Source of the DNA: Patiria miniata
Taxonomy: Eukaryota
Length of the DNA stretch: 64,000 nt
Direction: 5' to 3'
Assembly: GCF_015706575.1 (NCBI RefSeq)
Contig: NW_024037060.1
Coordinates: 1,073,983 to 1,137,982, forward strand
A program made the position numbers and the translations under genes. Positions 6,824 to 62,989 of the stretch are shown here, in pieces. Position 1 is the stretch's first letter, and every line of letters starts with the position of its first letter. Under the pieces are notes generated by a model, which had not been told where the DNA came from, did no database searches, and saw only the letters and a list, made by a program, of their open reading frames with translations.

Positions 6824-7098
6824 CAGGGGCTGATCCAGAACACAATTTTTTTTGGGGGGGGGCCAAAAAAATGTTGGTCCCCAAAAAGTGGGTCCAAGAA
6901 TATAACTGTGTGGGTTTTGGGGACCGCTTAAGGGCCCCCCCCCCCCCCCAATTTTTTTTTGGATTTTAGTGGTGTGATCTGTGGTGCGATCTGAGGCAAT
7001 TTTCTGACCACTTTGACCCAATTTTTTTGAGGAAAAGATGGTGGTGTACGCAGTGCCTGCCTTTATGACCCCCCCCCCCCCCCCCGGATCTGCCCTTG
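6824..7098. mobile_element. MITE family A (TIR CAAGGGCGGATCCAG, G/C homopolymers) in P1 intron 10; the copy is orthologous in P1-P4
   Basis: Terminal CAGGGGCTGATCCAG ... CCGGATCTGCCCTTG; the same insertion site occurs in P2 (28500-28713), P3 (39393-39670) and P4 (49414-49731). Confidence 0.7.
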
Positions 7099-7837
7099 TT
7101 TATTTTGAATATGCATATAGCAGGGTTCGACCTTAGCGGTGGTCCGCTGGCCAAATGCCAGTTGAATTGCCGGCGGACCAGCTGAAACACCTTGCCAAGT
7201 GGTCCGGCTGGCCAGCTGAAAAAATCTGCGTCAAAAAAATGCTTGTTGTATTTATTTGGTTTCTTACTTACATTCGCTATTTTTTCAAAAGAAACCTCTG
7301 TTATTTTTACAAATTTGCTTCGCGATATGACGACTTCGCAATTCGATGTCACGGTGACTATAATCATGTGCGTAATCCAGCCCAATGCGGCGATGACTGG
7401 TTCCCGCCGCGCCAATTTAGAAGACATCATGATGAAAATGCGGTAACTATTCTGTGCACGGCTATGCGATCGATAGAGCATGGCTATGCATCGTGCTCTG
7501 TCAACTGGTCGGATTCGACATCGAAAAAATGCCAAGAAAACACTTATGGAGAAAGAACATTTTTGCAAGTTAATTTTATACAGAATTGAACTAGCTTGCC
7601 TGTGTATGTATTTTCTGTGTTCAAGAGTTCATTTTGAGAACGCATTACTCGTATTTGGAGTGATACATGCCGTGTGTTTCCCGAAATTTTTGACCGTGAA
7701 AACGGGTCTGTCGGCCCATGGTGGGCCGCTTGCCACACACGCACGCATCACACACCTCGGAGTTTTGGCCAGCTCCCCACGTCTTGACTAGCATTGTGCA
7801 TATGGTGCGAACGACCTGAATTTTCCATTATTTTTTG

Positions 7838-12424: not shown

Positions 12425-13090
12425 GGTACCTTAGTGAAAAAATCGTGACACAGTGGACAAAAGCACCATTTTTTCACCAAAGCATCTCCATGGTATACCT
12501 TTTCGAAAAAAAAGACGGACGCAAAAAATTGGATGAAAAAATATAAATTGATAATAATCTTCAGAACTACAAGCATTACAACAACAAATGTGGTATCAAA
12601 TTAAAGGGGACAGCAAGCTCTTTCATTTGAGTGGTATGTCATGGGGATGGAATATAGTTAAGGGTGATTTTGTGGGTCAAACAGACCCCTTTTTGGGGTC
12701 AAAAGACATGTTTTTAGGCTAAAATCATGGATTTTGGGTAGTCACATTGGCACCTTGTTTTAACATGCAAACAGTCTGTGGTATTGTGAGATGTTGCTTT
12801 TAAGTTCGAGAGAAAAGTTCAAATTCTATGCCAAAACAGTTTTTGTAATTGATTATTAGTATCATAAATATGTTTAAACTTGTTCCAAAGACAAGCGGAA
12901 AAGTGAGGCATCTTATAGCGAGCTACATTAGTAACAAAAATGCTATTAGGATCGTTACATGGTATTTAAAAGCACCATTTTTTTCACCAAAGCTTTGCCA
13001 ATGTGTTACGATCAAAAATAGGGTAGGATGCAAAAAATCGGATGACAGGAAGGGTACTTTATGACGTTATAATGACGTCACAATATACTA
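12425..13090. repeat. Left arm of a roughly 670-bp complex inverted repeat (partner 19215-19906)
   Basis: 12436-12840 is the reverse complement of 19490-19906; 12900-13080 is the reverse complement of 19230-19400. Together they bracket about 6.1 kb inside a roughly 10-kb block that exists only between P1 and P2. Confidence 0.6.
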
Positions 13091-15059
13091 CCAAGCTCGT
13101 ACAGTAATTAATTGTAGAAAATAAGGTCGTGAAGCGTTGTGATGAGATTCCAAGTAATTAATTTGACATTTTGAGGGTCAGGGAATTGAAGAGTGATATA
13201 ATCAGTGACATTTAAGTAACAATAAGCTGATTTGCTGTTGCAGTGACGTCACTATTTTCAAATTTTCTTGAAAAATCTAAGCATTTTTTGATTATGGACA
13301 AAAGTGCTACAATGACGGTATTCGTCACGCAGAAAATAAATTGTGTGAAATTGTGCGGCTCCTTGAATTTGGTCTTTACCACATCCATTTGTTTTGACCA
13401 TTTACTATAGCTGGAAGACGTAACATTCTTATATGTGTTGTATATTACGGGTAATGAGGTATGGGTTAGGAGCCAGACAAAAAAGGAACGTGGTAACCTG
13501 AAATAGATTAACAGAGTGGCCGGAAATGGTGATGGTATTTCCTTTAACAATGTATTACAAACGGGGGCCGCCCGATAGTCCGAAGGTCCAATAGTCCGAA
13601 GGTTCTTTAGTCCGAAGGTTCGATAGTTCAAATCAGGGGCGGATCCAGGATTTTCAAAAAGGGGGGCACAAAAACTTTGTGCGCGTTGCACACATAACGA
13701 GACTGAAGCGCGAAATCCCTTGCGGGCAGGGTTGAGGGCACTGGAAGCTCTACGATTCTAGATGTTCTCTCCTACATCATGAGTACTTTAAGCCATTAAG
13801 AGCAAAATTCACAATGTTTATTTTTTACTTTTAATAACACTATTTTTGCCTATCAAATATAGAATTTAAAGTCACTGTTGATGTAAGTTGAAAATGAACC
13901 CCAAAATTAGAAGGTGCTGATGACAGCCCCCGGGTGAAAAATATGAACATGTGTTATTTTGCGAGCGAGCGGAGCGAGCGAGCCAAAAAAAAGTCATGTT
14001 TACTATTAAAACATACATTTCTACCCAGAAATTTGCCTTGCAAACAAAGAAAATAAAATAAATTGAATTTCATTAGGGGACAGCCTGCCCCAAGCAGCCC
14101 CTACCCCACCCCACCCCACGGCTGAGCAAATCAACCGGCCCAGAAAATTTCTCCGTCCCAATTCCTTTGAAAAATGTTGTATAACTTATAAGCCTGCTGA
14201 GTATTACATTACGAATAGTCTTTACAAACAAAAAGAAGAAATAAAACTTTATTTCAAAACCATCTCGGTTGTCATAAAAAAAATTGATGATATTAGCAAA
14301 ATTTCCCCGTAGCGTTTAAATGTTTAGTCAAGACTTCAAAAAGACTGCCGCCTGTGTCCCAGTATAATGTGAGGTAACTGCGGTCACATATATACTAACT
14401 TTGTATATACACTTGTATACACTTTAACCACCATTTTTTTCCATGTTCTTTTGAAGTCTGCTGGCTAAATAATTTAAGACGAAATGAATCGTCTGCATTC
14501 TGCAAGTGTTGTCGAATCACTTCAAGAAATGTCAAGGCCTGAGGAAAATCGTTTATTTGTATTTTTTTGGGGGGGGGCGCCGATTTTCTTAAAAAGAAAA
14601 CAAAAAAAAACAAACTTTAATTTAACGGAAATGCAAACTACATCAAAATTCCAAATTCCAAAATATGAAAAAGTTTGTCTGCACAAATTTCCCGAAAGTG
14701 GCAGCATTCCTGAGCTGTTATCAAAGGCCTTAAAGTTCGGTGGCCTACAGCTGAACCCAAATGTATATGCTTTGTAATGAACAAGAGTAGCATTGTATCA
14801 ATTTGAACAATGCGGCTATCAATCATTCTCTGGAAAGGCTTTTCGGAGCTGAGATTTTATTTGGGCATTTGTTTTCCTCAGAGACAGGGGAAACCTTTAT
14901 GCGAAAAATGTGGGAAACTGAATTGAACGTGAAATTTCACCTCCGTGTTGTGTACATGCACATAGATAAACGATTGGGGGATGATATTCCAAGTCCAAAT
15001 AATTCATTAAATGTAGGGCTCCCGATGTCTTTTTTCGTAGTACGATTTTATTCTTCGCT

Positions 15060-15782: not shown

Positions 15783-16141
15783 CTACTCAAGGGTGGATCC
15801 AGAACACAATTTTTGGGTGGGCCAAAACAAATTTTTGGTCCCCCCCCCCCAAAAAAAGTTTTGGTCCCCCCAAAAAGTGGGTCAAAAAAATTACGGCGTG
15901 GGGTTCGGGGCCCGCTTAAGGGCCCCGAAATTTTTTTGGATTCTAGATACTCTGTGGTGCGATCTGAGGCAATTTCTGACCACTTTAACCACTGTTTTAT
16001 TGAGGAAAAGATGGTGGTGTACTCATTGCCTGCCTTTATTGCGATGTCACATAAAAAAAAAAAATTGGTTTCGTTTTTTTTTGGGGGGGGGGGGGCATGG
16101 CCCCCTTTGCCCCCCCCCCCCCCCCCCCGGATCCGCCCTTG
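15783..16141. mobile_element. MITE family A copy inserted in the third unit of a roughly 355-bp tandem repeat
   Basis: CAAGGGTGGATCCAG...CCGGATCCGCCCTTG; flanks ctactc...ctactctagaatatattttggaata match the uninterrupted units at 15100 and 15460. Confidence 0.65.
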
Positions 16142-16727
16142 GCTCTACTCTAGAATATATTTTGGAATACATTTTGACATGAAGCATTAAATGCAAGTGC
16201 TGTATTAAATGTGCCCCTAGTGCAGCCGGGAAATAAAAAAGTGTCTTATAAAAATATATTCTTGCTTTGAAAGAAATTTTGAGACAATGATTGACAGGCG
16301 ACCTTCAAAACTTATACATTGTATATTTTTGTTGATAATTATGTATAATAGTTATGTTCCAAGCGATTGATTTGATGACCGCCCGTCCGCCCGCCATAAT
16401 GACTCCTCAAAAAGGAAAAAGATAGCCATGTTCTCAAAGGGATGTATTTAATGCGCGCCCGCCCTAAGATAACTCGTTAAAAAAAAAAATAAAAAAAAAC
16501 AGTTGCAAAAAGGGGGGCACGGGCCTGGTGTGCCCCCATCTGGATCCGCGCGTGGTTCAAATGCACAAAATTTCCATAAGAGGGGGTTCGTTGGTCCGAA
16601 AATGAAATAAGGTTCGTTAATCCGAACATTTGATGCAATAGTCCGAAGGTTCATTAATCCGAAGGTTCATTAGTCTGAAGGTTTATTTCTCCGAAGGTTC
16701 GATAGTCCGAATCGGTGATGTAGTGCC

Positions 16728-19214: not shown

Positions 19215-19906
19215 TTTTAATGTATAAGTGTTTAATAATTAGCCGATGACGTCATAATGATGTCATAAATGGCCCTTCCCATCATCCAATTTTTTGCATC
19301 CTACCTTTTTTTCGAAAACGTAAACAATGGAGATGCTTTGGTGTGAAAATGGTGCTTTTCTCCACCCGTGTCACGATTTTATCACCAAGGTACCTCACTT
19401 TTCCGCTTATCTTTGGAACACTAAACATTTAAGATACTAATAATCAATTACAAAAACTCTTTAAGCATAGAATTTGAGCCTTTCTCTCTGACTTCAAAAC
19501 AACATCTCACAATACCACATACTGTTTGCATGTTAAAACAAAGTGTCAAAGTGACTACCCAAAATCCATGATTTTAGCCCCAAAAAACGGTCTTTTGACC
19601 AAAAAGGTTTTTTTGACCCACAAAATCACCCTCAACTATATTCCATCCCAATGACATACCACTCAAATGAAAGATCTTGTTGTCCCCTTTAATTTGATAC
19701 CAAATTTGTTGTTGAGATGCTCGCAGTTCTGAAGATTATTATTAATTTATATTTTTTCATGTAATAATTAGCTGATGACGTCATAATGACGTCATACATG
19801 CCCTTTCCATCATTCAATTTTTTGCGTCCGTCTTTTTTTCGAAAAGGTATACCATGGAGATGCTTTGGTGAAAAAATGGTGCTTTTGTCCACTGTGTAAC
19901 GATCCT
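19215..19906. repeat. Right arm of the complex inverted repeat
   Basis: See the left arm. Confidence 0.6.

Positions 19907-20583: not shown

Positions 20584-20621
<38 letters not shown>
20584..20621. repeat. Poly-G tract (about 38 G)
   Basis: Uninterrupted G run inside the hAT-like element; similar C/G runs occur at 1289-1306 and inside MITE-A copies. Confidence 0.8.
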
Positions 20622-20680: not shown

Positions 20681-21001
20681 CAAGGGCGGATCCAGAACAC
20701 AATTTTTTGTGGGGGGGGGGCCCAAAAAAAATTTGGTCCCCCAAAAAAGTGGGTCCAAAAAATTACGGCGTGGGGTTCGGGGCCCCGAACAATTTTTGGA
20801 TTCTAGATGCTCTGTGGTGCGATCTGAGGCAATTTCTGACCACTTTAACCAATTGTTTTTGAGGAAAAGATGGTGGTGCACTCATTGCCTGCCTTTATTG
20901 CGATGTCACATAAAACAAACAAAAATTGGTTTCGGTTTTTTTTTGGGGGGGGGGGCGATGGCCCCCTTTGGCCTCCCCTCCCCCTCCTGGATCCGCCCTT
21001 G
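20681..21001. mobile_element. MITE family A copy nested inside the hAT-like element
   Basis: CAAGGGCGGATCCAG...CTGGATCCGCCCTTG. Confidence 0.65.
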
Positions 21002-23353
21002 CACTATCTATACTACAATTCAAGGAATCTCTGTCTGTCTGTCCGTCTGTCTGTCTGTCTGTCTGTCCGCCGATTATCTCCAGAACTGGGCACCGTATGA
21101 AGTTGAAAATCGGCGGGTGTATTGCTCGGGACACCAGAATGTGCAGTGCCAAATTTGAAGGGGTTTGGAAGAGCGGTTGTCGAAAAAGCTGCAAAAAAGC
21201 AGCATTTTTTGAGACTCAACGTGGCAGAGTATAGCCTAGAACTCCACGCACTACTGTTCTTTTCAATTGTTTACGTCATGTTAAAGCTAAAGCGCGCGTG
21301 CTCAATATGACGCAAACAATGCAAAAAGGACGAGCACGCGCACGTGCATTGTAGGGCGATACCATTGTCCAGTATGGGTGAATAGCACTGCGTACCATAT
21401 GTTTCCGTACGTGATGACTGCACGGGCACATGCATTTTGCAGTCGATTGAACCACTATTGTAGGCGGTGGATTGAGCAACCTTACTCACGTAGGTGAGTA
21501 GCTGCACGGGCGTATTGGTGAATATCAGTGCCGGGGATGGCCTGGCGACATGTACAAAGTGCGCTCAACCTATGAGTGTGAGTTTAACATGTGAAAACAA
21601 CACAATTGAATCGTGTGCGTTGTTTGCATGATATGAGCATTTTGAAATTGCCCCTAACGAACAGGTGCATTTTTTTGACGGGCCCTGCAAAAATGACGGG
21701 CACATTGTAGGGAGATAAGCACTGCACACTATGTCTTCGTACGTACATATACGTGAGTAGCATGCACGGGCACATGCATTTTGTACTCAAATGAGCAACC
21801 ATCACTGCACTGTATGTGCCGGGGGGGGGGGGTGACGACATTTTGTGAGTTTAACTTGCGAGTGTGCTTTCACACCATTGAATAATGTGCGTTGTTTGCA
21901 CGAGCTGCAGTTCTCAACTGCCCCTTCCGAACACGCACATTTTCGACTGGCCCTGCACTAGTATTAACTAATGCACCCTTGTCACGGCTATTTCTTCTTT
22001 AGGGGGAGACCGTTCACATGTACATCACAATCCTTCTTTTTGCTAATGCAATTTGTTTTTTTACGGAATTTATTTTGGGGGGGCTAGACAAAATTTTTTG
22101 GGGGCTACAGCTCCCCCTAGCCCCCCCGTAGAACCGCGCCTGATTCAATATTTGTTTTTTTAACACTTCACCCACAGATTCTGCTTGATTTTAATATTTT
22201 AAATTATTTAAATCTGAACACAGTTGAAATTAACTTCAATTTCAATACAAAATTGGTGGAAAATGTATTTCTCTCTTAAAAACCACCCCTTCACGAAATG
22301 TTTGAACCGTAAGTCTGCGGCGCGCTCTCTTTGGAATAATGCGCGCTACGCACTACGCGCAACGCGCACACCAGCATGCATTTGCACACAAATACCGCGC
22401 CATGGAAATAGTACTTTGGTTGCTAATGGTATAGTACTTTGGTTGCTATGCGCATAGTACTTTTGGCCGTGCACAGAAAGATAGCAAAATTAGAAAGTAA
22501 CACGTGACTCGCTCTCGGCCAATCAAGACACAGAATCTGTGGGTGAGGTGTTATAATCCAAACAAGTACAAGTGCAGGCAGCACGTATACAGGCGCGGCT
22601 GTGTGAGTGTACGTGTACCGACGAAGTGTCAAAGTTTTCCGTCATTCAAATAGTTATACTCTTTCTGCACATTGAACTAAAATAACTGCTAAATGTGTTT
22701 TGTAACCAAAGCTTCGGCTCGTTACACCTACATGCAATTACTTGTGAAGGACGGTGGAATCGCAGGGCGGCCTCGGACTGGTTTTGTACACACTAGCTGA
22801 CTAGGCCTACGTACTGCTGCTGTTTAGCATGTTTAGATGATGTGCTATATTCTGTACGAATCTCGTGATCCGGCCATTCAACTTTTTTTAAGGCGATTGT
22901 GTAGGCCTAGGCGCAAGGCTACATGTATAGTTATTTCATCATAGTAGTACAGTGCAGTGTCCACCGGCCCCCTCTATCTTTTGGTCCTTAGGACGACTGT
23001 GCCAACATGCACGCCTAGCATGTCTGACTAAGCCTGACTTGCTATTGCGGCTTAATTTCCTTTCCTTAAATTGATCTTTGTTTTGTTCTAACCGGTTGTT
23101 TACATTTTAAAACTTTCTCCAATTCCTTCAGCTCAGTGACGTGCCATGCGTGTGTGGGTGGTAATCAGGTTATGAACTGCCCACATCTTTCAAGGGTCCT
23201 GCAAAAAGGATGTGGCAGGCTGCAGGCAGAGGCAGTCGCTATGTCTTAATTAAAGTCACCCTTGCTGCATCTGGTGCAGATACCAACAAATCCCACGCAG
23301 GTTGAGAGACCGCTAGTCACGACACTAGTTTGAATTGAACACATCAAGTAACC

Positions 23354-27069: not shown

Positions 27070-27647
27070 GTGAGTGGTGCAACAGTGTCACAAAAGTTTC
27101 ACTTCAGTAGAAAAAATTGCTCCTCGTTTAAGCTTTGGTCCCAATTGAGGATCAAGGAGGGCGCTGGGGGGGGGGGGGGGGGGGGGGGCGGGCTTAGTCC
27201 CCTTAAACTCTCCAGTAAGGTTAAAAAGTCTGGATCTTAAGCTCAGAATTTTTGTAGTTTACAGGTATATGCCTGGGTTGGTCTACCTTTCCACTCCCCA
27301 TTTTATAAAATGTACCAGTCCATTGACCTGTGTGGTTAGATTAGGTGGGTGATAAGGCATACAGGATCACCAGGTCAGTGCCACGCTCACGTAGCTGGTC
27401 ACACAGGGTGAAAGTTTTCCATATGGTGGGTGAAAAATCCTTGAAAAAATCATGCATTCAGATGCTGATCTGGATCACTTCCAAATGAAATGATTCGTAC
27501 TTGTACCAAGGACCACCCCTAAATGAGTGACGGCAGGAGTATGCCATCGAATAGTAAGACAATTCTTATTTGGCAATGCGTTTGACAAATTCCAGTCTTC
27601 ACTCTTGTTAACCATTTTATCTCTCCTTCTTTGTGTGACTTCACCAG

Positions 27648-30561: not shown

Positions 30562-31803
30562 ACGAAAGCCCATTAGCGCCACTGCAAGTATATATGTTGC
30601 GGAATATTTAATTCGTTATTATGGATTATTAATTCGTTATTACGGATTACTAATTCGTTATAACGGATTATTTAATTCGTTATTACGGATTATTAATTCG
30701 TTATTACGGATTATTAATTCGTTATTACGGATTATTAATTCGTTATTACGGATTATTAATTCGTTATAACGGATTATTTAATTCGTTATTACCGATTATT
30801 AATTCGTTATTACGGATTATTAATTCGTTATTACGGATTATTAATTCGTTATAACGGATTATTAATTCGTTATTACGGATTATTTAATTCGTTATTACGG
30901 ATTACTAATTCGTTATAACGGATTATTTAATTCGTTATTACGGATTATTAATTCGTTATTACGGATTATTAATTCGTTATGGATTATTAATTCGTTATAA
31001 CGGATTATTAATTCGTTATTACGGATTATTTAATTCGTTATTACGGATTACTAATTCGTTATAACGGATTATTTAATTCGTTATTACGGATTACTAATTC
31101 GTTATAACGGATTATTTAATTCGTTATTACGGATTATTAATTCGTTATTATGGATTACTAATTCGTTATTACGGATTATTTAATTCGTTATTACGGATTA
31201 TTAATTCGTTATTACGGATTATTAATTCGTTATTACGAATTACTCATACGTTCCGAGTCATTACTCGGCAAGTATGGCACAGGGTGCAAACGTTGTATGC
31301 AAAGATAGCGCCGCCTAGCGGCGCTATATACACAGGCCCCTGGTCACGTGCTCTCCAAGTGTGAGAACATCAGACCTAATTCGTAATAACGAATTAATAA
31401 TCCGTAATAACGAATTAAATAATCCGTAATAACGAATTAGTAATCCGTAATAACGAATAAGTAATCCGTAATAACGAATTAATAATCCGTAATAACAAAT
31501 TAGTAATCCGTAATAACGAATTAATAATCCGTAATAACGAATTAATAATCCGTAATAACGAATTAAATAATCGGTTATAACGAATTAATAATCCGTAATA
31601 ACCAATTAGTAATCCGTAATAACGAATTAATAATCCGTAATAACGAATTAATCATCCGTAATAACGAATTAATAATCCGTAATAAAGAATTAAATAATCC
31701 GTTATAACGAATTAATAATCCGTAATAACGAATTAATAATCCGTAATAACGAATTACATAATCTGTAACATATATACTTGCAGTGGCGCTAATGGGCTTT
31801 CGT
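30562..31803. mobile_element. Foldback-type element: long TIRs built from 23/24-bp tandem repeats around a 125-bp unique core; 8-bp TSD AGAAAAGT
   Basis: Termini ACGAAAGCCCATTAGCGCCACTGCAAGTATATATGTT / AACATATATACTTGCAGTGGCGCTAATGGGCTTTCGT. Arrays of TTATTAATTCGTTATTACGGAT-like units run 30602-31250 and, inverted, 31376-31770. TSD at 30554-30561 and 31804-31811. Uninterrupted empty sites ggtgggcagaaaagtgat occur at 11360, 41461 and 51548. Confidence 0.8.
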
Positions 31804-33074
31804 AGAAAAGTGATTGTACTTTATTATTGTGTCAATAACTTGACATAAACCTATCGGTGTTTTTTTGTAATTGCCAGAGAAAAAAAAGGGAAATATCAAG
31901 ATTCCATTCAAGTGTGTGGACTAACAGCCATTTTTGAATCGTAGTAATAATTTAATATTTATAACATTTTTAAAACACCTTACAGTGCCTTGATACACAT
32001 TTTTCTTAATTTGTGCTTGGGAATTAAATCGATAAATCTCGAATAACAACTTCAACAGTAGCTGCATTTTCAACGCACTGTCTTAAGATTAAGAATCTTA
32101 CGATTAACCACAACGGTACTAATTAAATACTAATTAAAGTTTGCATTGTTTGCAATCAACACATAGTTTGAACGTACTAAATTCTGGGGGAAAATGATGT
32201 ATTCAATGTCTGCGTAAATATATTTTCACAAATCTTGAAAACATATTGATATCAATTAAAATTTAGGTTGCACAACACGGTTCTTGGAAGATTTAGTAAT
32301 TGTAAACACATTATAGTTACTCTCTTTAACAACTTCGATTTTGTTTTTTTTATAATAGAATTCATGTTTTCAATTAAAATAAAACCAACATTTTCTATTT
32401 TTCGACGACTGCAACCCTCCGATTTGTTTTTCTTTTTGACTTTGGGTAGCGCTCTTCTTAACGTACACAAAAAAAAATCCGGATGAATTATTGTCAATCG
32501 CAAAAAATCGAAATTTGTAAAGTAATTATTCCATAACACTACACGTCAACTTGACATATTTTCGTTTGATGTCTCATTTAAAAGTAAATAACTTTTGCAT
32601 TTCCAGGAAAAAAAGCTAGCTCGTGCTAGTCTTTTTTACCTGCCAGCATCCGGGGTGCGTTACGTGTCCGGATGGTCCGGGTATAGGCGCGTGGGACTTG
32701 ACTAAAGGCTAATCGAGTGCTTGCGTGTAGTACTATACTACTATACTCGAGTTGTACAACACTGCTAATTTTTGGCAACCACTTGACATTGAGCAATCTC
32801 ACCCATTTAATAATGGGATGGTCCAACTAGCACGGTGAACTAAAATAAACTGCTAAATGTGTTTTGTTACCAAAGCTTCGGCAAATACAATATCTTATTA
32901 TTACAATTACATGCAATTACTTGTGAAGGACGGTGGAATCGCAGGGCGGCCTCGGACTGGTTTTGTACACACGGTAGGCTTACGTACTGCTGTTTGGCAT
33001 GTTTAGATGATGTGCAGTGTACGAATCTCGTGATAATCCGGCCATTCAACTTTTTTCAAGGCGATTGTGTACAA

Positions 33075-34093
33075 GCATGTTTTATTTCTCCATGGTACAA
33101 GTATACAGTATTTCATCAACTCGGACCCACGACCAACTCGGACCAACGACCAACTCGGACCCACGACCAACTCGGACCCCAACTCGGACCCAACAATGAC
33201 TTAATCATTAGTTAAAGTTATTAATTTGAAATAGGCCTTTCATTTCATGTAATTGTTAGTTTTTTTAATTTTTTTTTTTTTTACGAATCTGTTTAACTTT
33301 TTATACTTTTTTGATTAACTTTTTTGTTCAATATGGAACCTTCGTTTTTCTTGCAGTGTATGCAATGGTGTTTATGTGTTTTTTTTTTTAAATACATGTA
33401 CATGTAGAGTTTAGAGTAGTCTTCGTTTTTATACCTTAATTATTTTATTTAATGACTTATATAATGTTTACTTATATTTATTGAATTAATAATGTCATGT
33501 TTGAAAGTGTTTATGTTTCAATGTCATACTTTTCAATTTTATTTTTCTATGAAGATCTGTTCTGAATTTATGTGGTGTTAATTAAAAAGGAAATAAATTG
33601 CTGTTAAATTGAGCAAGATGGCATGAACGATGTCAAATATGAAAATGAATAATTGGTTAAACTTTAATTTTAATTACTTTTGGTTAAAGTGCAATATGTT
33701 TCAATGGAAACAAATGATAAAAATAAATAATTAATTACACTTTTAAAAGCGCATTTCAAAATAGCATTTCAATGCGCTTACAACAACAAACTGCTGCAAG
33801 TGCAATACAGATATTTTACCTGACAACTACAATGAAAATTTATACTTACCAGTAACAGCATCACTGTATTAACAGATGATAAGTGGACAAACTGTATGAA
33901 ATTGTCGAATGATTGAAAACGCTGTCGAATGATTGTAAACGATGGGTCCGAGTTGGTCATACATGGGTCCGAGTTGGTAGTGGGTCCGAGTTGGTTGTGG
34001 GTCCGAGTTGGTGGTGGGTCCGAGTTGGTAGTGGGTCCGAGTTCGTATGGGTCCGAGTTGGCTCGGGTCCGACTTGGTTTGGGTCCGAGTTGG
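33075..34093. mobile_element. Foldback-like roughly 1-kb insertion with inverted arrays of the unit AACTCGGACCC, upstream of P3
   Basis: Left array 33115-33195 (CAACTCGGACCCACGAC x5); right inverted array 33945-34095 (GGGTCCGAGTTGGT x10). It replaces about 140 bp (aggcctaggcgcaaggct...gcctagcatgtc) that is present upstream of P1, P2 and P4. Confidence 0.65.
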
Positions 34094-34442
34094 ATCGAAA
34101 CCCTGACTAAGCCTGACTTGCTATTGCGGCTTAATTTCCTTTCCTTAAATTGATCTTTGTTTTGTTCCAGTAACCGGTTGTTTACATTTTAAAACTTTCT
34201 CCGATTCTTTCAGCTAAGTGACGTGCCATGCGTGTGGGTGGTAATCAGGTTATGAACTGCCCACCTCTTTCAAGGGTCCTGCAAAAAGGATGTGGCAGGC
34301 TGCAGGCAGAGGCAGTCGCTATGTCTTAATTAAAGTCACCCTTGCTGCATCTGGTGCAGATGTCCTGATAACCAACAAATCCCACACAGGTTGAGAGACC
34401 GCTAGTCACGACACTAGTTTGAATTGAACACATCAAGTAACC

Positions 34443-34713
34443 ATGGCAGAAACCGACGCCCTGTTGTCGTACGTAGCACCCAAGCATTCACACCCAAGCT
34501 TGACCAAATACGATACTGTCAATGGGGACCGTGACATCCTTAGTGCGGAGACCCCATCTCCTCTGACGAACAGCTTGAAGAATGAGAGGGGAAAGCCCAT
34601 GACAGGAGAACACGTGGTGTACAAAGCAAGGTGGTTCATTCTGGCCGTCTTCTCGCTACTTTGTATGTTGCAAGCAGCAGCGTCGAACGCATGGGGTCCC
34701 ATCGCAGACACAG
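34443..34713 (+). CDS. SLC49-family (DIRC2-like) paralog P3, exon 1/11
   Basis: aaccATGG; 90 aa + phase-1 G; MAETDALLSYVAPKHSHPSLTKYDTVNGDRDILSAE...RWFILAVFSLLCMLQAAASNAWGPIADT; GT at 34714. Confidence 0.8.
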
Positions 34714-35187
34714 GTTTGTCACACAATTTCACCAGTTTGTGCTGACAGGAGAGTTGTAACCAAGTCATTTTTGTCCTAGTCCAGTCAAGTCACAAGCCAT
34801 ATATTTTCAAGTCAAGTCTCAAGTCATTTTTTCCCAAGTAAAGTCAAGTCTCAAGTCAAAAAAGTAGCGACTTGAGTCCGACTCGAGTCCGAGTCAGCGA
34901 CTCGAGTTAACAACACTGGCTGACAGCGTTGGCAGAAAATGTCTGATCTAACCCAGTAACCGCAGAATCCTTCGTTACGGGATGTAAACATGTGCATAAT
35001 CCAAAATTCCTCTCTGACCCGTAAAAATAATTTGATTCCTTTTAATTCTAGGACCTACCTATAGATCTGGAATTATAATTTATATTTTGTACATAATATC
35101 AGATTTTCAATGTACATACTTATAATATAAGCTCCATTGATTGTAATGCATGATTTTAAACCTAATTCTTCATCATCTGATTTCTAG

Positions 35188-37787: not shown

Positions 37788-38164
37788 GTGAGTGGTGCAA
37801 CAGTGTCACAAAAGTTTCACTTCAGTAGAAAAAATTGCTCCTCGTTGAGCTTTGGTCCCAATGGAGGATCAGGAGGGCGCTGGGGGGGGGGGGGGGCTTA
37901 GTCCCCTTAAACTCTCCAGTAAGGTGAAACAGTCTGGATCTTAAGCTCAGACATTTTGTAGTTTACATGTATGTGCCTGGGTTGGTCTACCTTTCCACTC
38001 CCCATTTTATAAAATGTACCAGTCCATTGACCTGTGTGGTTATATTAGGTGAGTGATAAGGCATACAGGATCACCAGGTCAGTGCCACGCTCACGTAGCT
38101 GGTCACACAGGGTGAAAGTTTTCCATTGAAAAAATCATGCATTCAGATGCTGATCTGGATCACT

Positions 38165-38400
38165 TCCAAATTATTTGGGGGGGGGGGCAAAAAAATGTTG
38201 GTCCCCAAAAAGTGGGTCCAAGAATATAACTCTGTGGGTTTTGGGGACCGCTTAAGGGACCGCCAAATTTTTTTTTTGATTCTAGTGGTGTGATCTGTGG
38301 TGCGATCTGAGGCAATTTTCTGACCACTTTGACCCAATTTTTTTGAGGAAAAGATGGTGGTGTACGCAGTGCCTGCCTTAATGACCCCCCCCCCGTACCA
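38165..38400. repeat. Internal fragment of MITE family A without TIRs (P3 intron 8)
   Basis: Matches the MITE-A core (GTGGGTCCAAGAATATAACT...GCGATCTGAGGCAATTTTCTGACCACTTTGACCC) but lacks both termini. Confidence 0.5.
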
Positions 38401-38539
38401 AGGACCACCCCTAAATGAGTGACGGCAGGAGTATGCCATCGAATAGTAAGACAATTCTTATTTGGCAATGCGTTTGACAAATTGCAGTCTTCACTCTTGT
38501 TAAATATTTTATCTCTCCTTGTTTTTGTGACTTCACCAG

Positions 38540-39215: not shown

Positions 39216-39392
39216 GTAAGTTCAAAATTCTGAAATAACTGAGGCTGCTACCACCGTCACAATGGACTCAGTGTGCAAACAAGAGAGGGCGCTTTTTCTA
39301 CCACTTTTGAGAGCCATGTGGACGGGAGACATCATGTGCCCGTTCTGGTTCATGCACCTGCAGCATGAAGGAGGCATGACTAGTTTTATTTT

Positions 39393-39670
39393 CAGGGGGT
39401 GAGCCAGAACACAATTTTTTTTGGGGGGGGGGCCAAAAAAATGTTGGTCCTCAAAAAGTGGGTCCAAGAATATAACTGCGTGGGTTTTGGGGTCCGCTTA
39501 AGGGCCCCCCCCCAAAAATTTTTTTTTTTGATTCTAGTGGTGTGATCTGTGGTGCGATCTGAGGCAATTTTCTGACCACTTTGACCCAATTTTTTTGAGG
39601 AAAAAATGGTGCTGTACGCAGTGCCTGCCTTTATGACCCCCATTGCCCCCCCCCCCTGGATCTGCCCTTG
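39393..39670. mobile_element. MITE family A copy (P3 intron 10)
   Basis: CAGGGGGTGAGCCAG...CTGGATCTGCCCTTG. Confidence 0.6.
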
Positions 39671-39943
39671 TTTATTTTGAATATGCATATAGCCATGTCA
39701 TCTCTCATGAGCCTCGGGCGTCTCTCCCAGTGGTCTCCCCCAACTCTGCCCTTCTTACCGTTGAGGGGGTACTTGTGCACAGAGCCCGTAGACTCGCCCA
39801 TTATGCCCTGCCCAATTTTGTTTCAACCAATCACAGCCTTGAAGTCTAGCAACAAGTCCAATAAGTGCTCAGCAAATTTTTGTGCTGAGTAGCTGTATGA
39901 AATTGTGTTGGTCATTGATATTTTCCTCCACGTTCGCCATCAG

Positions 39944-44378: not shown

Positions 44379-44586
44379 ACCCCCGGACAACTTGTGAATG
44401 GAACATCCTCCCACCAGACGTTAGAGCTCAACCTGACATCAAATAATTCAAAGAGAGACTGCATCAAATAAATATGGATGAGCTGGTCAAAAAAGCTCAT
44501 TACAAAATTTAATCACCACTGCCACACTGACCTATACGTTATACCACCATCTGCAGTGTTTGCATACTATCCAGCAGAAGCAGAAG
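44379..44586. other. 208-bp P4-specific insertion 48 bp upstream of the ATG
   Basis: P1-P3 read ggttgagagaccgctagtcacg; in P4 ggttgaga|aacccccggacaacttgtgaatgg...cagcagaagcagaaga|gaccgctagtcacg. Confidence 0.6.
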
Positions 44587-50132: not shown

Positions 50133-53100
50133 CAAATGATATTGTCCTCTTCTAGGGCTGTGCATGTTCAAATAATTTCATATTTGATTATTCTAACTTG
50201 GATTGATTGAATATTCAAATATTTGAAATGCACCGATCAAAATTAACAGCCACTTGAATTATCATGTTTTTAATTCATAATTTTCTCTCACTAAGTAAGT
50301 TATGAACTTGCCAATGAGACGTTGCACACAAATCTTCTGACAGTATTAAGGTTAAGTTTGAATTGGAGTGACTTGCTCCCAAGTTTTGACAGTTCTATAT
50401 CCCCCTGGACTGTGTAGAGTACTAAGTGTAATACAGCATTATTACATTTAAAAAGTACATTTTTCCCCCCACAATTAGTGGGTATGTGGAAGACTGACGT
50501 ACTAATTTTGAAACTCATATTTGCTTGTATTCCCACATACTTCTCAACCAAGAAGTATGAAGGCATTATTTTATATATTTTGATAATTATTCAATGAAGT
50601 GAGATTGATATTTGTTTTAATATCAACTAACTTGTAATTAATAGAATGTCTGTGAAGGGTTGGGTTTGTAAGAAAATAATATTTTATGTTATGAATATTA
50701 CATGAACACCTGTCCAAGTTTGTAGTATTGTTATCTCACAAGCTCTTGGAAAGCACTGAATATATAACAATTATATAACAATGATATTTAAAATTTCAAG
50801 ATATTTGCACATATCTACATCAAAGGTGTTATTGATCAAAGGTGTTATTGATATTTACATGTAACAACTATCACTCAGGACACCGGTAAAGTCAATACAA
50901 TTAATACACAATGTATATAGGTCCACATTTTTAATATTGCAATGAATGTTGACTTTTGTGGCTTCATATAGTATGCTACTGCATTTCCAATAATATAAGA
51001 AGGTGTTATAGGCAGTGATTACGTATCATAGGTGGTTCGTTCTAAAATTTTACACATTTATACAAACTTTTTATAATTTTTTTTCCAGCAATGTACATTG
51101 ATAAAGATGATACTCGTTTTTCATGTGTATAATGCTTGAAATTAGAAATGCTGGCATTTCTACCATGACTGTAAATTTAATTGGTATATTTTTTAAATTT
51201 AAAACAAATAGTCGACTTTTATCCAATTTCTCGTCACTCCAATCGTGATTGATGCCTTATGCCGTTGAATTTAATGTAAACTTTTCATTCTAGACGGTTT
51301 GACACAACTCATGTAAATACGGGTAAAATTTTGGTGGTTTTTGTTAGATGATTATTTGAGTTATGATTAATTGTATTTCCTTTTGTAGTACGTATATGTG
51401 GCAATTTTGGTGAAACTTCAAAACCGATTGTTGCACTAAAACATTTTTATAAAATATCAACTGGAAATCAAGTCTTTCACATACTGCCATGTTTTATTTA
51501 AATGTCAGTTATTTTGAGGATAGTCATAAATTAACATGAAATCATACGGTGGGCAGAAAAGTGATTGCACTTTATTATTATGTCAAAATTTGACATTAAC
51601 GTATCGGTTTTCTTTGAAACTGCCAGAGAAAAAGAAAGGAAATATTAAGATTCCATTCAAGTATGTGGACTAACAGCCATTTTTGAATCGTAGTGATAAA
51701 TTAATATTTATAACATTTTTAAACACCTTACAGTGCCTTAATACACATTTTTCTTAATTTGTGCTTGGAATTAAATCGATAAATCTCGAATAACAACTTC
51801 AACAGTAGCTGCATTTTCAACGCACTGTCTTAAGATTAAGAATCTTACGATTAACCACAACGGTACTAATTAAATACTAATTAAAGTTTGCATTGTTTGC
51901 AATCAACACATAGTTTGAACATAATAAATTCTTGGGAAAAATGTTGTATTCAATGTCTGCGTAAATATATTTTCACAAATCTTGAAAACATATTGACATC
52001 GATTAAAATTTAGGTTGCACAACACGGTTCTTGGAAGATTTAGTAATTGTAAACACATTAAAGTTACTCTCTTTAACAACTTCGATTTTGTTTTTTAAAA
52101 TAGAATTCATGTTTTAAATTAAAATAAAACTAACATTTTCTATTTTTCTTTTTCGACGACTGCAACCCTCCGATTTGTTTTTTTTTTCTTTTTGACTTTG
52201 GGTAGCTTTAGCTCTTAACGTACAAAAAAAATCCGGAAGAATTATTGTCAATCGCAAAAAAAAATCGAAATTTGTAAAGTAATTATTCCATAACACTACA
52301 CGTCAACTTGATATATTTTCGTTTGGTGTCTCATTCAAAAGTAAATAACTTTTGCATTTCCAGGAAAAGAGCAGTTTGAAATACAAATCTATTTTCTGGT
52401 CACAATGAACTCGAAAATGGCACGGGAAAGGTCATTTTGTCTTAAAATGAGACCATTATTTCAAAGGTATGACTAAATATAATACATGCATGTCAGTGCT
52501 TCAGCCTCCAAATTGTGTACATTAAGACAGTGCCAACCCATTTACAATGTGACATGACACTGCAAAAAGTTCCAGTGTGTTATATATAAGTTATAACTAT
52601 AACTTGGAAATCTGTATTATAAGTGCCAACAGTAAATTCAATGCTTAAAGGAAAGATTGAAGAGCGTCATATTCCCGACAAATAGGAAATTGAAATTGTC
52701 ACCGGCCCAAGTTTTATTTCAGTTATTGGTACCTTACCGCACCCATACAAAGGAAGACAAAAGTAGACGGAAAGGATTAAAGAAGATCGTCGAAGTTGAG
52801 TTATTTATTTTAGCCCTTCTTTTTTTTTCTTTTCTTTTTAAAGTACATGTAACATAAACTGCTGCCGAAAGGGCTTTATATAGTAAAAAGTTGTTTTGAA
52901 ATAGTGCCTTCATCATCAGGCGTCGTCTTCACCCAACTTTTCCGATTTTTTCACGGCTATTTTGCTAGTATGCTAATGTTTTGCACTCACTTTGGAAAAA
53001 TCCTGGCTTCAACTATGCTTATTATCAGTGGTGGAAGAATCGACATTTTTGTTATTTGTGATTATGTAGTAAAAACAGTAGCTGCAGCCTGAGTCAACAA

Positions 53101-53290: not shown

Positions 53291-53937
53291 CTAGAAGAAG
53301 AAAACACAACCGAAATTAATCAGTCACAATCCAGAACTTGTAGAAACTGCTGACATGCCTCCAGTTTTTTTTTTCGCCAAGTTTTATAGTAATGTTTTAC
53401 GCATAACGACCCGTCATAGTCATTCGCACTGAACAAGCATGGCCGGGGAGTGGCTTTTGGGGGTTCATTACCAACATATTACGCTTTTATTACCAACAGT
53501 GTACAAAATGATGTACAAAATGTAGTTTGCTTATAGGGCTGTAAAAATAAGAACGGAAGTAACAATTTATTGCACTTTTTACAAAAACGAAAATCACCTT
53601 CCTCTGACTGGCTCCGTTTTTGGTGTTCCGTTGTCCCGGTTACTGTGCTATGCCCCACATTTTGTAATAAGTATTTGGGGGGGGGGGAGACGAATATAGA
53701 TCCTCGAATCCTCAAATTGGCTCATAGCTAATGAAGCAGTAAAGGCCATGACAATGAGGAAAATGATAAGGTGCCTTGTTGCACTTGCAATCTTTAGGAA
53801 GAAATGAACAGTATTACGTGGAATAGACGCTCCCAAGAAGGCTTCGTCGCCGTGCCTGAGAATATTGCCTCGTGTGAATTGGTGTTTGTTAAAAAACAAA
53901 AGTCGTCGATGATATTGACAGTGTTTTGTTATTTTAC

Positions 53938-54120
53938 CTATGCCGTGTATCTGCGGTAGGAGCAGGAAGACCAGCACGCACACGTTGTTGAGCCACGTCA
54001 TCAGCATGGTGATGGTTCCCTCGGAGACGGGATACATGCCCTCTACCGTCACCTCGAAGTAGATGGGAATGGAGGCATTGATGAAGAAACCGATGATGAT
54101 ACAGGAGATGTACAGACTCG
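53938..54120 (-). CDS. P5 exon 10/11
   Basis: 183 nt; PSLYISCIIIGFFINASIPIYFEVTVEGMYPVSEGTITMLMTWLNNVCVLVFLLLPQIHGI. Confidence 0.7.
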
Positions 54121-54920: not shown

Positions 54921-56204
54921 TATAGTCAGGTGGCATATGGTCGGAATCGTGACCGACTGGTCCAAAGCACCAAACTTGGCAGATAGATTCTTATAGCCCT
55001 AGAGAAGATATTTAGAAGGGGTGACACCTGAAATTCTTTTGGGAAGGGTGCCTAATTTGCATAAATCGTTAATCCCTGCCGTGTAATATATTTATTCCCA
55101 TATTTGGGTATATTTTTATTTTTTATTTTTTTTGAAAAGTGTATTTTGGTGATTCTACTTGCATATTCTTACTTCAATAACATTTTGTAAAACATATAAG
55201 TGACTGAATAATTAGGAGGACATAGTAAAGAACCACAATTGCTACTATTTTACCCTAAAGTTACGCGCATTTACCTTTTCCTCAGATATCATCAACTAGT
55301 CTCGCCAAACGTTGGTATTGATGAGCTTCAAATTAACAAAGTTACTTACTGGCATAGTTACCCTGACAAAAATAAATGGGAAATCAAGTGAAAATTGATA
55401 ACATCTTGATGCTTAGCCCAAAAGACCAAAAAAGGGGAGAAAATGTGGTGTCCGTAAATTGGGCTAGTACGAGAAGGGTATAACGTGGGAACTTAAACAA
55501 GTTCAACAAAATCCCCCTTAAGAAGAGATTATTGTTGTTTACAATAATTTTGTCTACGCCAAAACGTTTTCTTAACAATAATTAGGGGAATTTTCTTGAA
55601 CTTGTTCCAGTGTTCCATATGTTAGGCAACCATTCACCTACTTGTTAGCCTAATTTATGGACACCTCGTTTTTCCCCAGTTTTTGTTTTCTGGGCTTAAT
55701 ATCACAATGTTATCATAGTTCACATGATTTTGCATAAGGTTTTAATAGGGTAGCTGTACCAGTAAGCTACTTGGTGAATTTGAAGTTCATCAATGCTAAT
55801 GTTTGGCAAGACTAATTGATGATATCTGGAGACAAGGTAAATGCGCGCAATTTTAGGTCATAATAGTAGCCATTTTGGATCGTTACTATGTCCTCATAAT
55901 TATTCAGTCACTTATATGCTTTGGAAAATGTTATTTAAGTAAAGATATGTAAGTAGAATCCCCAAAATACACTTTTCAAAAAAAATAAAAAAATGGAAAT
56001 ATACCCAAATATGGGAATAAATATATTACACGTCAGGGATTAACGATTTATGCAAATTAGGCACCCTTCCCAAAAGAATTTCAGGTGTCACCCCTTCTAA
56101 ATATCTTCTCTAGGTCTATAAGAATATATCTGCCAAGTTTGGTGCTTTGGACCAGTCGGTCACGATCTTGACGAAAATTAGATCTAAGCCACCTGACTAC
56201 TAGG
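54921..56204. mobile_element. 1.28-kb near-perfect palindrome (two arms of about 640 bp at about 90% identity, centred on AAAACGTTTT near 55565) in P5 intron 8
   Basis: 54921-55560 is the reverse complement of 55570-56204 (for example tagtcaggtggc...gaccgactggtccaaagcaccaaacttggcagata versus tatctgccaagtttggtgctttggaccagtcggtc...gccacctgactacta). Confidence 0.75.
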
Positions 56205-59378: not shown

Positions 59379-59962
59379 CTGTGTCAAACATCACAACAAA
59401 TGACTTGAAGAGCAAACAAATGTTTTGATAGCAAATTCTTATTGTTGAGGGCGTGAGTTTGAACGTTCTGAGGGAAGTTGCATTATATAAGCAAAAAAAA
59501 AAAAACCAAGCTTAAGGCCATCAACAGATGTTCCTCCGCTGGTGGCCCTCTATAATCACTGCACACGTAAATCCCAACCGAACAGCTGCGCAAACTTAAT
59601 TATCCCTCCACTCTTTTCCGCAGCATTGCACTGTACGCGGAATATGCTTAATTATGTTCCATTATAGAGTAAAGTATAGTCATCGCAAAAGGTAAAAAAA
59701 ACCCAAATTACCAGACAAATCATCAAACGAGTAGAGAGTAGGGGCGTGGGCTAAAATTTGGAGGGAGGAATTTGGAGGTAGTTCGCATCGTTTGAAGAGG
59801 GACTCAAAGGTTAAAAAAAAAGAGCTCATTTGCATTCAACGAATTCTGAGCGGGGAAAGCACAAGCCATGGAGGGGGTGGGGGGGGGGGCCGGGGGGTAC
59901 CCCCATTTCCCCCTTAATAACATCACTGCCATCAGAGAGACAAAACAATGAGGACATCTTAC

Positions 59963-60287
59963 TGGTATCAGCTATGGGACCCCACGTGTTCCAGGCAGCC
60001 GCCTGTAAGACAAAGAGAAGCGAGAAGACGGCCAGGATGTACCACCGTCTTGCATAGGCCACATAGTGCTCCTCCTGCAGATGCTCATGGTGCTTATGAT
60101 GATAACCGTCCAGACTCTGGCGAAGGCTGCAATTCTTCTCGGAGTCTCTGGGCGAGATTGGGGGAGGAGTGCAGGCGTCGTTCAGCGTGCACTCGGGCGG
60201 CCCGGCGAGGGGTGTGGTCCGAGGGAAGTCATCTTCAGCGTACGGCAGGAGCGGTCTTGTGTCGGGTTCTTTCTCAGTCCGATCCAT
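59963..60287 (-). CDS. Divergent SLC49-family (DIRC2-like) paralog P5, exon 1/11
   Basis: Minus strand; cgatATGGat Kozak (ATG = plus 60285-60287); MDRTEKEPDTRPLLPYAEDDFPRTTPLAGPPECTLNDACTPPPISPRDSEKNCSLRQSLDGYHHKHHEHLQEEHYVAYARRWYILAVFSLLFVLQAAAWNTWGPIADT; donor GT at 59962-59961. A longer N-terminus from an upstream ATG (60422) is possible but passes through a poly-T-derived FFF stretch. Confidence 0.65.
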
Positions 60288-62989
60288 ATCGAAAAAAAAA
60301 TCTGCCGAACTTAAAGAAACGGAGACGGAAAGTATGCAAAACTTGTCTAGATTTTTCCAGTCAATATTATTGACTATAGGAAAAATTGTTATGCAAATAA
60401 CTAAAACTGGAGTCAAATCCAACTAGTCAATATTTTGACTACATGTAAGTTGTTTTATTTCCTTTTAAAGTAGCAAATTAATCATTCAATTTCAGGTTTA
60501 AATTGAAGTTTATAAACACATTAATATGCATGACAACTAACTGAAGTGCCTTCCTAGATCTTACAATTGGACAGCGATAAGCAACCGGAATCGCAAAATC
60601 GCATTTTTTATTAGTAAAATTTGAAAGTTCTATATGGACCTCCATTACACTGTGATGTCCGTGTTTCCTGGTGTGAATTGTATGTCTGGTAAGACTCTGG
60701 TTCACTTCCCCTTTCAATTTAGTGCTGAATGAACATTTAAGCTATATCTGTCAAGGAAATAGTAAGCCGACACAGCTTTATGAAACTGTACTTTTTCATG
60801 CAGAGCAGAGGTATGTGTAATATCCACCATCGTGTTTACTGCATGAAGGTGCATACAAAGTTACTAACAAAAGCAACATTGTTGGTTTTCCTTTCGTGAC
60901 AGGCTTCAAAGTGTGATGGTTTGTTAGTGATGGTTTGTTAATGACGGTTTGTTCGCCATTTGTTGTAAATAGGATGCTTGCAACACATGTCTTTTATGCT
61001 GAGCTCCTCTGTAAAGCATATAAAAAAGTTAGTTTACGTGTGCGTTTTGTAACACGCGCGAACATCGCCAAAATTGACTGAAATGTGTGAAATCTAGATT
61101 GAAGCAAGCATGTTAACAGCGTCCCACAATGTGAACAAATGCCCTAAAGTAATGAGCAATCTGAATACGTTGAATACACAAGCCATTTGCCTTCCCGCAC
61201 TTGTCATATCATCAGCCGCATTACACCCAATTCACATTTAAATACAATATTAGTATAAGCGAACAAAGATTTCTCAATGTCATGAACAGGATAGCTCTTT
61301 TATCATGTGACCGCGGCCTGACTCGTGGAGAGTACACGCGCAATCGGAACTTCCTCTTCAAGGCTACTTCCTGTGTATAGGCTACGAATTATTTGCTTCA
61401 TATGTCATTTGGCGAACGATACCATCATGACGTCACTGAAGAAAGCCACATTCATTTTGAATTTATCTCATCATATCTTCTGGTTTGTGAGATATGGCAT
61501 TTTAACTTTTATAAATGGTCACATTTCTTAGTTTTCTAAAATCTGACATGACACGTTTAATATGCCTACGTTTATTGTGTACTGGAGTGTGTGCTCAAAC
61601 AGGCGCAGAAACAAAACTGGTGAAAAAGACGGCAGAAAAAAAATAATCTGAACAGAAACAAAAGGCGTTTGGGATACAAACTCGCGCTAGTTTGAATCAA
61701 ACAGATCAGTGTAATTAAAGCATAAAGTGACGCTATCTCATCTTACCTCAATTCCAAAGATAATCACGCCTTATTTCACACAGAAGGCAAACTAGAAGGA
61801 ACAAGCAGGGTCGAGTTTAGGTTTGCACATTTAAAGGCTCACACTTGATATATTCATGCACGCCTTCCCTAGCCCTGCGCGTGACTGCTTCGCGGTTTCG
61901 CACTCGTGAATATAACCCGACTGTTGAACTTTAACCACCAACAACAGACTACAAACAAATCAAACACTTATGAACAACTATGGACCATTGTGTTTCAAAG
62001 ATTGAACTAACTGTGATATAATATGTACATGCAATTCCCAGTATTTAGAGGGTATTTGACGTCGCCGGGGCGCATCAGAAAGATGGGAGTTAATAATTGG
62101 CCGAAATTGTGGAACTGTTTGTTGGGAGCTGGAGGGAAGTGCGGTCTTTTTTGAATGGTTTTATCATGACGAAATACTACACCGCGCAGCATTAAATAAC
62201 CTTAACGTCCTAGCCATTACTTTGGGATAAAGAACTGAGTACATGTACTACAGAAAACTTTCAGTGTTGTGCACGCTTAAGTGTAATATATGCTGAAGTA
62301 TTTCATACTATCGTTACTAGTACAGGTAGCTACGTGCACAACTTTTGCAAGGCGCAGTCCAATTTAAAAGCACTCCGATTCAAAATAACGGACTAAGTAC
62401 AGTTGAAAATTATCACGACTATAAATACATCGTCACCAGGCATGTTTATTTAATGTGCCAGAATTTCCAATTGACTAATACTACAAAGAAAGAGTGCTCA
62501 TCTGGCCAGTACATTTTAAAATTTATAATCACAAATTAATCGTTTTCATATTTCAAATATTATTTTTTTTCGGGAGGTCTACATATGACCATTTTTCATA
62601 TGAGAATTTTTTTCGTGACAGTATAAAGTTGCACTGCTTCAGCAACAGAAATCAAAAGAACTTGAGTAATTCCACTTCTTAATTGTAACATTTTTTTAAA
62701 TGTTCATACTGTGTTTTCAGTATTATAAACCAAGGCTTTTTTTTTTTTTTTTTTACAATATCAGCTTAAATAGAAAAGAACAACTTGTTGCACTTCTAAC
62801 TGATGTTTTAAAGTCACTTAAAACAATGATTTCACTTACCGGTCTTTTTTTGCTTTTTTTTGCATTAATTGATTTCGGACCTCAATTTAATAAAAAATAA
62901 AAACTGCCACTGTTCACACTTCGTTCACATATCTATTTGAATTTTTAGAAAAACGAAAAGAACAGATACTTCCACCATTCACTGGCATG

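Follow-up and report, generated by a model that had tools for sequence, protein, structure and literature searches.

The Drosophila FB and sea-urchin TU elements consist of inverted arrays of short subrepeats around a heterogeneous, non-coding middle and are associated with deletions. Arm lengths lie between hundreds of bp and kilobases, the loop is often short, and the target-site duplications (TSDs) measure 8-9 bp. Both are named as foldback transposons (PMC4079207). Foldback-type elements are in general characterized by long, internally repetitive TIRs, a non-coding middle and TSDs of 7-10 bp; most of them are placed in the Mutator superfamily, some in the P superfamily (PMC4079207, PMC3573991, PMC3169594). 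The nearest published anatomy to the element described here is that of the Tm1 MITE-like elements of root-knot nematodes (Meloidogyne), which belong to Mutator/Foldback and are related to Phantom (PMC3169594). Tm1 elements are ~1 kb long, and their TIRs are built mostly of tandem repeats of 13-15 bp, with a terminal motif of 7 bp on the outside. For one copy, the lack of TSDs and a truncated 5' TIR were described (PMC3169594).

The window (the whole 64-kb stretch of DNA that was analysed) contains a gene with introns in four tandem copies, P1 to P4, with start codons near 2150, 23356, 34443 and 44634. The product is a major-facilitator (MFS) transporter. Homologues carry PF07690; among solved structures, FLVCR2 and FLVCR1 come closest (E-values 7e-7 to 3e-5). 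A search with four concatenated P3 exons retrieved MFS proteins from metagenomes with 35-55% identity. The four copies are 93-97% identical, introns included, and their downstream spacers are alike in pairs, P1 with P3 and P2 with P4. This spacer pattern suggests the relationship ((P1,P3),(P2,P4)) and the duplication of a two-gene unit. P3 looks like a working gene, since all six exon-supported coding stretches checked in it are open.

Upstream of P3 we found a segment that is missing from P1, P2 and P4, the flanks of which align to P3 on either side. It is bounded by two anchors common to the four paralogs, AGGCGATTGTG (33059-33069) and CTGACTAAGCC (34103-34113), and the P3 block without BLAST alignment to the other paralogs covers 33070-34102. 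The left limit of the element was set to the end of the residual host homology at 33118 and the right limit to the start of CTGACTAAGCC at 34103. Its right end lies 341 bp from the ATG at 34443. A second copy was not detected inside the 64-kb window.

The core motif GGGTCCGAGTTGG, allowing up to one mismatch, has 14 matches in the window, every one within this feature. Five of them, on the minus strand, form the left arm and nine, on the plus strand, form the right arm (Table 1); 100 shuffles gave 0 matches. The repeat unit comprises the conserved 13-bp core and a spacer of 3-4 nt, 17 bp in all. TRF reports a period of 17, with 95% matches in the left and 87% in the right array. The arms, 76 bp on the left vs 150 bp on the right, are complementary to 94% over 63 nt, and their GC content is 60-63%, compared with 25% in the core and 42-45% in the flanks. 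Folded as ssDNA, the element pairs arm to arm with -161 kcal/mol, whereas shuffles reach -94 +/- 7 (z = -9.6). Read from the inside outward, the left arm has the order U, U, TCGT-U, TCGT-U, TCGT-U, where the innermost two units overlap by 1 nt and the outermost unit is fused to host DNA (GGGTCCGAGT|TGATGAAATA). The right-arm spacers are, from inner to outer, TCATACAT, TAGT, TTGT, TGGT, TAGT, TAT, CTC and TTT. The two arms have different types of spacer (TCGT left vs TAGT/TTGT/TGGT right), and the left arm has no counterpart to either the four outer units with 3-nt spacers or the terminus ATCGAAACC of the right arm.

The middle has no ORF outside the arrays, and searches of the element and the window returned no Rfam family and no tRNA. 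Compared with the rest of the window, including the P1 element and FB1 described below, the middle gave just short AT-rich chance matches. A coding tandem repeat was rejected as an explanation of the arrays: the arrays are inverted, periods of 17, 16, 15 and 21 occur inside one array, and the period of 17 (variants 15, 16, 21) is not a multiple of 3. The initial annotation had described a foldback-like anatomy and an insertion present in P3 only, about 350 bp from the P3 ATG. The inverted arms, the motif count and the fold confirm the first, the collinear flanks in P1, P2 and P4 without the segment confirm the second, and the measured distance agrees. Its coordinates, 33075-34093, hit the location but neither the limits of the element nor those of the unalignable block.

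Table 1. Features of the P3 upstream region and of the corresponding host sequence in the paralogs (positions within the window)
Feature	Position	Strand	Remarks
P3-private element	33119..34102	.	984 bp; AT-rich middle between two inverted arrays, terminal motif at the right end
Diverged host remnant	33070..33118	+	33091-33118 alignable, 33070-33090 not
Left arm	33116..33191	-	5 copies of GGGTCCGAGTTGG
Middle domain	33192..33943	.	752 bp, 25% GC, non-coding
Two 20-bp direct repeats TGTCGAATGATTGAAAACGC	33903..33942	+	90-94% alike; adjoin inner end of right arm
Right arm	33944..34093	+	9 copies of GGGTCCGAGTTGG
Non-repeat right terminus ATCGAAACC	34094..34102	+	9 nt; directly abuts host CTGACTAAGCC
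P3 proximal upstream block, intact	34103..34442	+	93-95% identical to P1, P2, P4
P3 exon 1 (MAETDALLSY...WGPIADT)	34443..34726	+	FLVCR-like MFS transporter
Host sequence missing from P3, reference copy in P2	22942..23023	+	82 bp
Equivalent of the lost 82 bp in P1	1724-1804		81 bp
Equivalent of the lost 82 bp in P4	43998-44084		87 bp

The inverted arrays of short subrepeats, the heterogeneous non-coding middle and the association with a deletion are shared by the P3 element and by FB and TU. Unlike these, it lacks a TSD, and its arms measure just 76 and 150 bp, with a middle of 752 bp between them. The likeness to Tm1 includes the length of ~1 kb, the lack of coding sequence, the variable short-repeat TIRs (repeats of 15-17 bp, compared with 13-15 bp in Tm1) and the unequal arms. 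Tm1 differs by an unrelated repeat, by TSDs of 9 bp and by a known transposase-encoding relative (PMC3169594). For the P3 element, in contrast, neither a second copy nor a TSD or transposase that would assign it to a superfamily was found in the window. Galileo copies with two TIRs (P superfamily) and Tetris are also non-autonomous and have TIRs with internal tandem repeats (PMC3573991, PMC4079207). In both, as in the P3 element, the repeat number differs between the arms, and copies without matching TSDs occur. However, their units measure ~210-220 bp and their TIRs 0.6-1.7 kb, and their TSDs are 7 bp (Galileo) and 8-10 bp (Tetris) long, whereas the P3 element has none (PMC3573991, PMC4079207).

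The foldback assignment of the P3 element rests on structure. It has TIRs built largely of tandem subrepeats and a non-coding middle between the arms; a 7-10-bp TSD at the ends is missing, and no transposase ORF is present in the 64-kb window. With its length it lies at the upper edge for a MITE. The element is present at one of the four paralogous sites, and no second copy was found in the window or in the metagenome, prokaryote and viral collections, so that we infer the mobility of the family from its structure and private presence. Transposon insertion is by a wide margin the best reading of the block, because it is private to P3, its ends are inverted arrays and the other three paralogs share the displaced sequence. 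It is likely to be a non-autonomous cut-and-paste foldback-type DNA transposon, which was inserted after the cluster duplication and the left end of which is truncated. As such it would be an ordinary transposon scar of a foldback kind that is already known. It was proposed that tandem repeats in TIRs serve as secondary transposase-binding sites (PMC3573991). By analogy with Galileo and Tm1, the GGGTCCGAGTTGG array is predicted to act as a multiple binding site for a transposase provided in trans.

For the TSD test, 66 left and 27 right candidate boundaries were combined to 1,782 pairs, and none of these pairs showed a target-site duplication of at least 5 bp. The longest flanking direct repeat has 4 bp, and such repeats are fewer than chance predicts. 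The right end abuts CTGACTAAGCC exactly where the paralog sequence resumes, and it looks complete, with nine units and the 9-nt terminus. The left end appears truncated: it consists of five inner-type units (4-nt spacers), lacks the terminal motif and is joined to host DNA. Unequal arms are, however, common among intact foldback elements. When the right end is reverse-complemented (TTTCGATCCAACTCGG), the left junction TTTCATCAACTCGG looks similar to it, and this likeness could mean either an intact left end or an imperfect microhomology that was used in joining. If the left end is intact, TATTTCATCA could belong to the element and not to the host, the loss would amount to ~70 bp and a one-step event would be favoured. 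Truncation implies GGTTTCGAT(CC) as the left terminus of the family, while an intact left end implies ...TATTTCATCAACTCGG. Ends of the hAT type (CAG...CTG) were rejected, as the CTG is host sequence in all paralogs. An 8-bp TSD is missing, and of the YARNG termini typical of hAT, a CAGGG at the right end can be read only by borrowing the host CTG.

Host sequence was also lost at the site. The spacing between AGGCGATTGTG and CTGACTAAGCC is 123 bp in P1, 122 bp in P2 and 111 bp in P4, compared with 1033 bp in P3. The P3 block starts with 49 bp of non-array sequence. Within them, P3 33091-33118 (CATGGTACAAGTATACAGTATTTCATCA) aligns to P2 22914-22941 (CAAGGCTACATGTATAGTTATTTCATCA), P1 1694-1723 and P4 43981-43997. 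Of 3000 shuffles each, 3 reached the alignment score for P2, 25 for P1 and 104 for P4; an earlier, stricter scoring of the remnant alignment gave about 0.01. The 10-mer TATTTCATCA occupies the collinear position in each of the four copies. From this remnant homology, the left junction would lie at 33118|33119, and about 28-40 bp of the host segment survive in P3 in diverged form. Since part of the 111-123 bp survives, the net host loss is 81-87 bp, and 111-123 bp (unalignable) is the upper bound. An alternative MAFFT register places the junction at ~33106 and reduces the loss to ~70 bp. The presence of the host segment is probably ancestral, because of the ((P1,P3),(P2,P4)) pattern. We also searched for the unalignable piece 33072-33094 as filler copied from elsewhere in the window, and no match with up to four errors was obtained.

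A separate P3-private deletion of 115-140 bp was detected at 32829|32830, ~290 bp upstream of the element. The sequence absent from P3 at this position corresponds to P1 293 to ~431 (~140 bp) and P4 43615-43729 (115 bp). It may be the source of the ~140 bp that the initial annotation gave for the loss at the insertion site. That conserved host DNA is gone there is borne out by the alignment of P1, P2 and P4 between the anchors, but the figure is too high. The same annotation had seen an insertion with an associated deletion. Insertion and host loss both hold; a single event does not follow, because the truncated left arm fits a later deletion at the left junction at least as well.

The present state would be reached in two steps. 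In the first, the element would have been inserted normally just upstream of CTGACTAAGCC. In the second, a deletion of ~150 bp spanning the left junction would have taken away 81-87 bp of host DNA along with the outer part of the left arm and one copy of the target site. The copy left behind is probably no longer mobile. This later deletion is favoured because it accounts for the missing outer units, the terminal motif, the TSD and the host DNA together. Within the transposon explanation, we infer the order of insertion and then deletion with about an even chance of being right.

Possible, though rather unlikely, is a one-step event, in which the two ends were joined to targets ~80-120 bp apart or the element was captured at a double-strand break, so that the host DNA was lost at insertion and no TSD was formed. 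Foldback elements are classically linked to adjacent deletions and rearrangements. Products of ectopic recombination were described for Galileo (PMC3573991). The missing TSD is consistent with such an event, and the host loss falls exactly between the two junctions. The likeness of the left junction to the reverse-complemented right end points in the same direction, and so does an imperfect microhomology that host TTTCATCA may share with the terminus TTTCGATCCA of the element. However, neither the outer-type units nor the terminal motif of the right side recur in the left arm, and a later deletion explains this arm with no special mechanism needed. A single sequence gives no relative date for insertion and deletion.

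It is very improbable that the block is a chimera of two family copies which lay ~80-120 bp apart and recombined, with deletion of the intervening DNA, leaving non-matching flanks. Recombinant Galileo copies are recognized by such flanks in place of a TSD (PMC3573991), and the different spacer types of the two arms would fit. But two insertions within ~100 bp would be needed, while no other family copy exists in the 64 kb, and a recombinant of complete copies would keep the terminal motif that the left arm lacks. Equally doubtful is an origin without mobile DNA, either as a local pair of inverted minisatellites around AT-rich DNA or as an ancestral state that was lost by P1, P2 and P4. Only one copy is known and minisatellites are frequent in the window; against this, the three paralogs share a site sequence of 111-123 bp of which P3 keeps a remnant, the private block starts and stops with inverted arrays, and its core has no counterpart in any paralog. 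Least credible is an assembly artefact from misjoined reads or a hairpin, because, although four paralogs of 93-97% identity with inverted repeats are hard to assemble, a paralog mix-up cannot make 984 bp of unique sequence, a hairpin gives a near-perfect palindrome and not arms of 76 vs 150 bp with 94% complementarity around a unique 752-bp core, and both junctions are clean.

A first foldback element, FB1 (30562-31803), is located between P2 and P3. It is non-coding and private to one inter-paralog spacer. Its inverted arrays of a 21-bp unit extend over 30600-31242 (~30 copies) and 31377-31768 (~18 copies) and enclose a loop of 134 bp. FB1 ends in unique termini of 38 nt (ACGAAAGCCCATTAGCG...) and is flanked by a perfect TSD of 8 bp, AGAAAAGT. 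P4 shows the empty site at 51555-51562, and it is also seen downstream of P1 and P3. FB1 resembles the P3 element in its inverted short-unit arrays and in being non-coding. It differs by arms of ~680 and 430 bp and by the TSD, and the two elements share no sequence. Since FB1 has a TSD and an empty site, repeat-armed elements do insert canonically in this genome, and by contrast the P3 element is an irregular copy.

Another private element was found upstream of P1 (673-1670, ~998 bp). It has TIRs of 48 nt (TGTTGTGCCCATTCTTGAAAATCACG...), 20-bp palindromic subrepeats (CGCATTCTTAAGAATGAGCG, 4.7 copies at 697-789) and a C24 run at 1283-1306. It was inserted at AAGGC|GATTGTG and is flanked by a 4-5-bp duplication (AGGC/AAGGC). 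In aligned coordinates it lies ~50 bp upstream of the P3 junction and has no sequence in common with the P3 element. A hot spot for the two insertions ~50 bp apart is not clearly beyond chance and is not claimed here, because each ~9-kb unit has several private indels. P4 carries a private insertion of ~203 bp at 44382-44584, ~50 bp upstream of the ATG. In exon 1 of P4 (44634-44660), a 1-bp deletion near codon 6-7 results in in-frame stops, so that the gene could be a pseudogene or start elsewhere. Compared with P1 and P3, exon 1 of P2 (23356-23400) is shorter by 33 bp, an in-frame difference of 11 codons.

The P3 insertion cuts the conserved proximal block at -341, and the distal upstream sequence, which is 83-88% identical among the paralogs, is shifted ~0.9 kb farther off. 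The initial annotation saw possible regulatory consequences of the insertion, and P3 with its open coding stretches would offer a gene to regulate. Taken together with the insertions at ~-480 in P1 and ~-50 in P4 (~200-bp insert), this could be read to mean that unrelated repeat-armed transposons independently hit promoter-proximal DNA of several paralogs, that the paralogs diverge in expression or fall silent through such insertions and not through changes in coding sequence, and that the GGGTCCGAGTTGG arrays serve as a protein-binding or hairpin module. We consider this distinctly improbable. By itself, the P3 element is of little consequence, a further non-autonomous insertion of foldback-like type in a genome rich in repeats. 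As a clean structural marker, it distinguishes P3 from its neighbours of 93-97% identity, which is of use for genotyping, for checking assemblies and for expression assays specific to one paralog. Along with the insertions private to P1 and P4, it offers a small natural experiment on the alteration of upstream regions by transposons after recent gene duplication.

For identification of related arrays in other sequences, the pattern GGGTCCGAGTTG-N3-8-GGGTCCGAGTTG was used. In JGI metagenome contigs it matched five loci, none of which is an inverted array. Four of the five were rejected as lone adjacent pairs in contigs with 51-70% GC. The fifth (Ga0224511_10008430, 2199-2335) is a period-15 array of nine copies of CTCGGACCCGGTCAA and was rejected as an LGPGQ coding repeat inside an exon. 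Its contig is eukaryote-like, with 40% GC and introns, and the 12-mer shared with the P3 element is a chance match only. Prokaryote genomes gave two loci with 1-2 adjacent matches, and viral contigs no match. A text search for the 13-mer GGGTCCGAGTTGG in either orientation found no mention in the literature library used. If further copies exist, the family, defined by the core GGGTCCGAGTTGG and the terminus ATCGAAACC, would be fit for a species repeat library.

Several other repeats occur in the window. A near-palindrome of 1.2 kb (54946-56166) is 83% identical to its own reverse complement and may be another inverted-repeat element. In the non-unit DNA that separates P1 from P2, ~7.2 kb are enclosed by an inverted repeat pair of 383 bp (12533-12914 and 19387-19760, 88.5% identical). 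Arrays of a 16-bp unit, ATAGTCCGAAGGTTCA, are located at 13575-13627 and 16636-16711 in the same orientation. An interspersed repeat with long G/C homopolymers was found at 6966-7120, 15848-16182, 20709-21010, 38127-38489 and 39392-39690. It recurs inside and between the paralogs (e.g., G38 at 20584-20621 and G27 at 27166-27192), and one copy forms a P3-private intron insert of ~300 bp. In addition, a fifth, divergent MFS paralog is encoded on the minus strand at 53648-54052 and 59826-60422, and its exon-like ORFs contain ...RRWYILAVFSLLFVLQAAAWNTWGPIADT... and ...TVEGMYPVSEGTITMLMTW....
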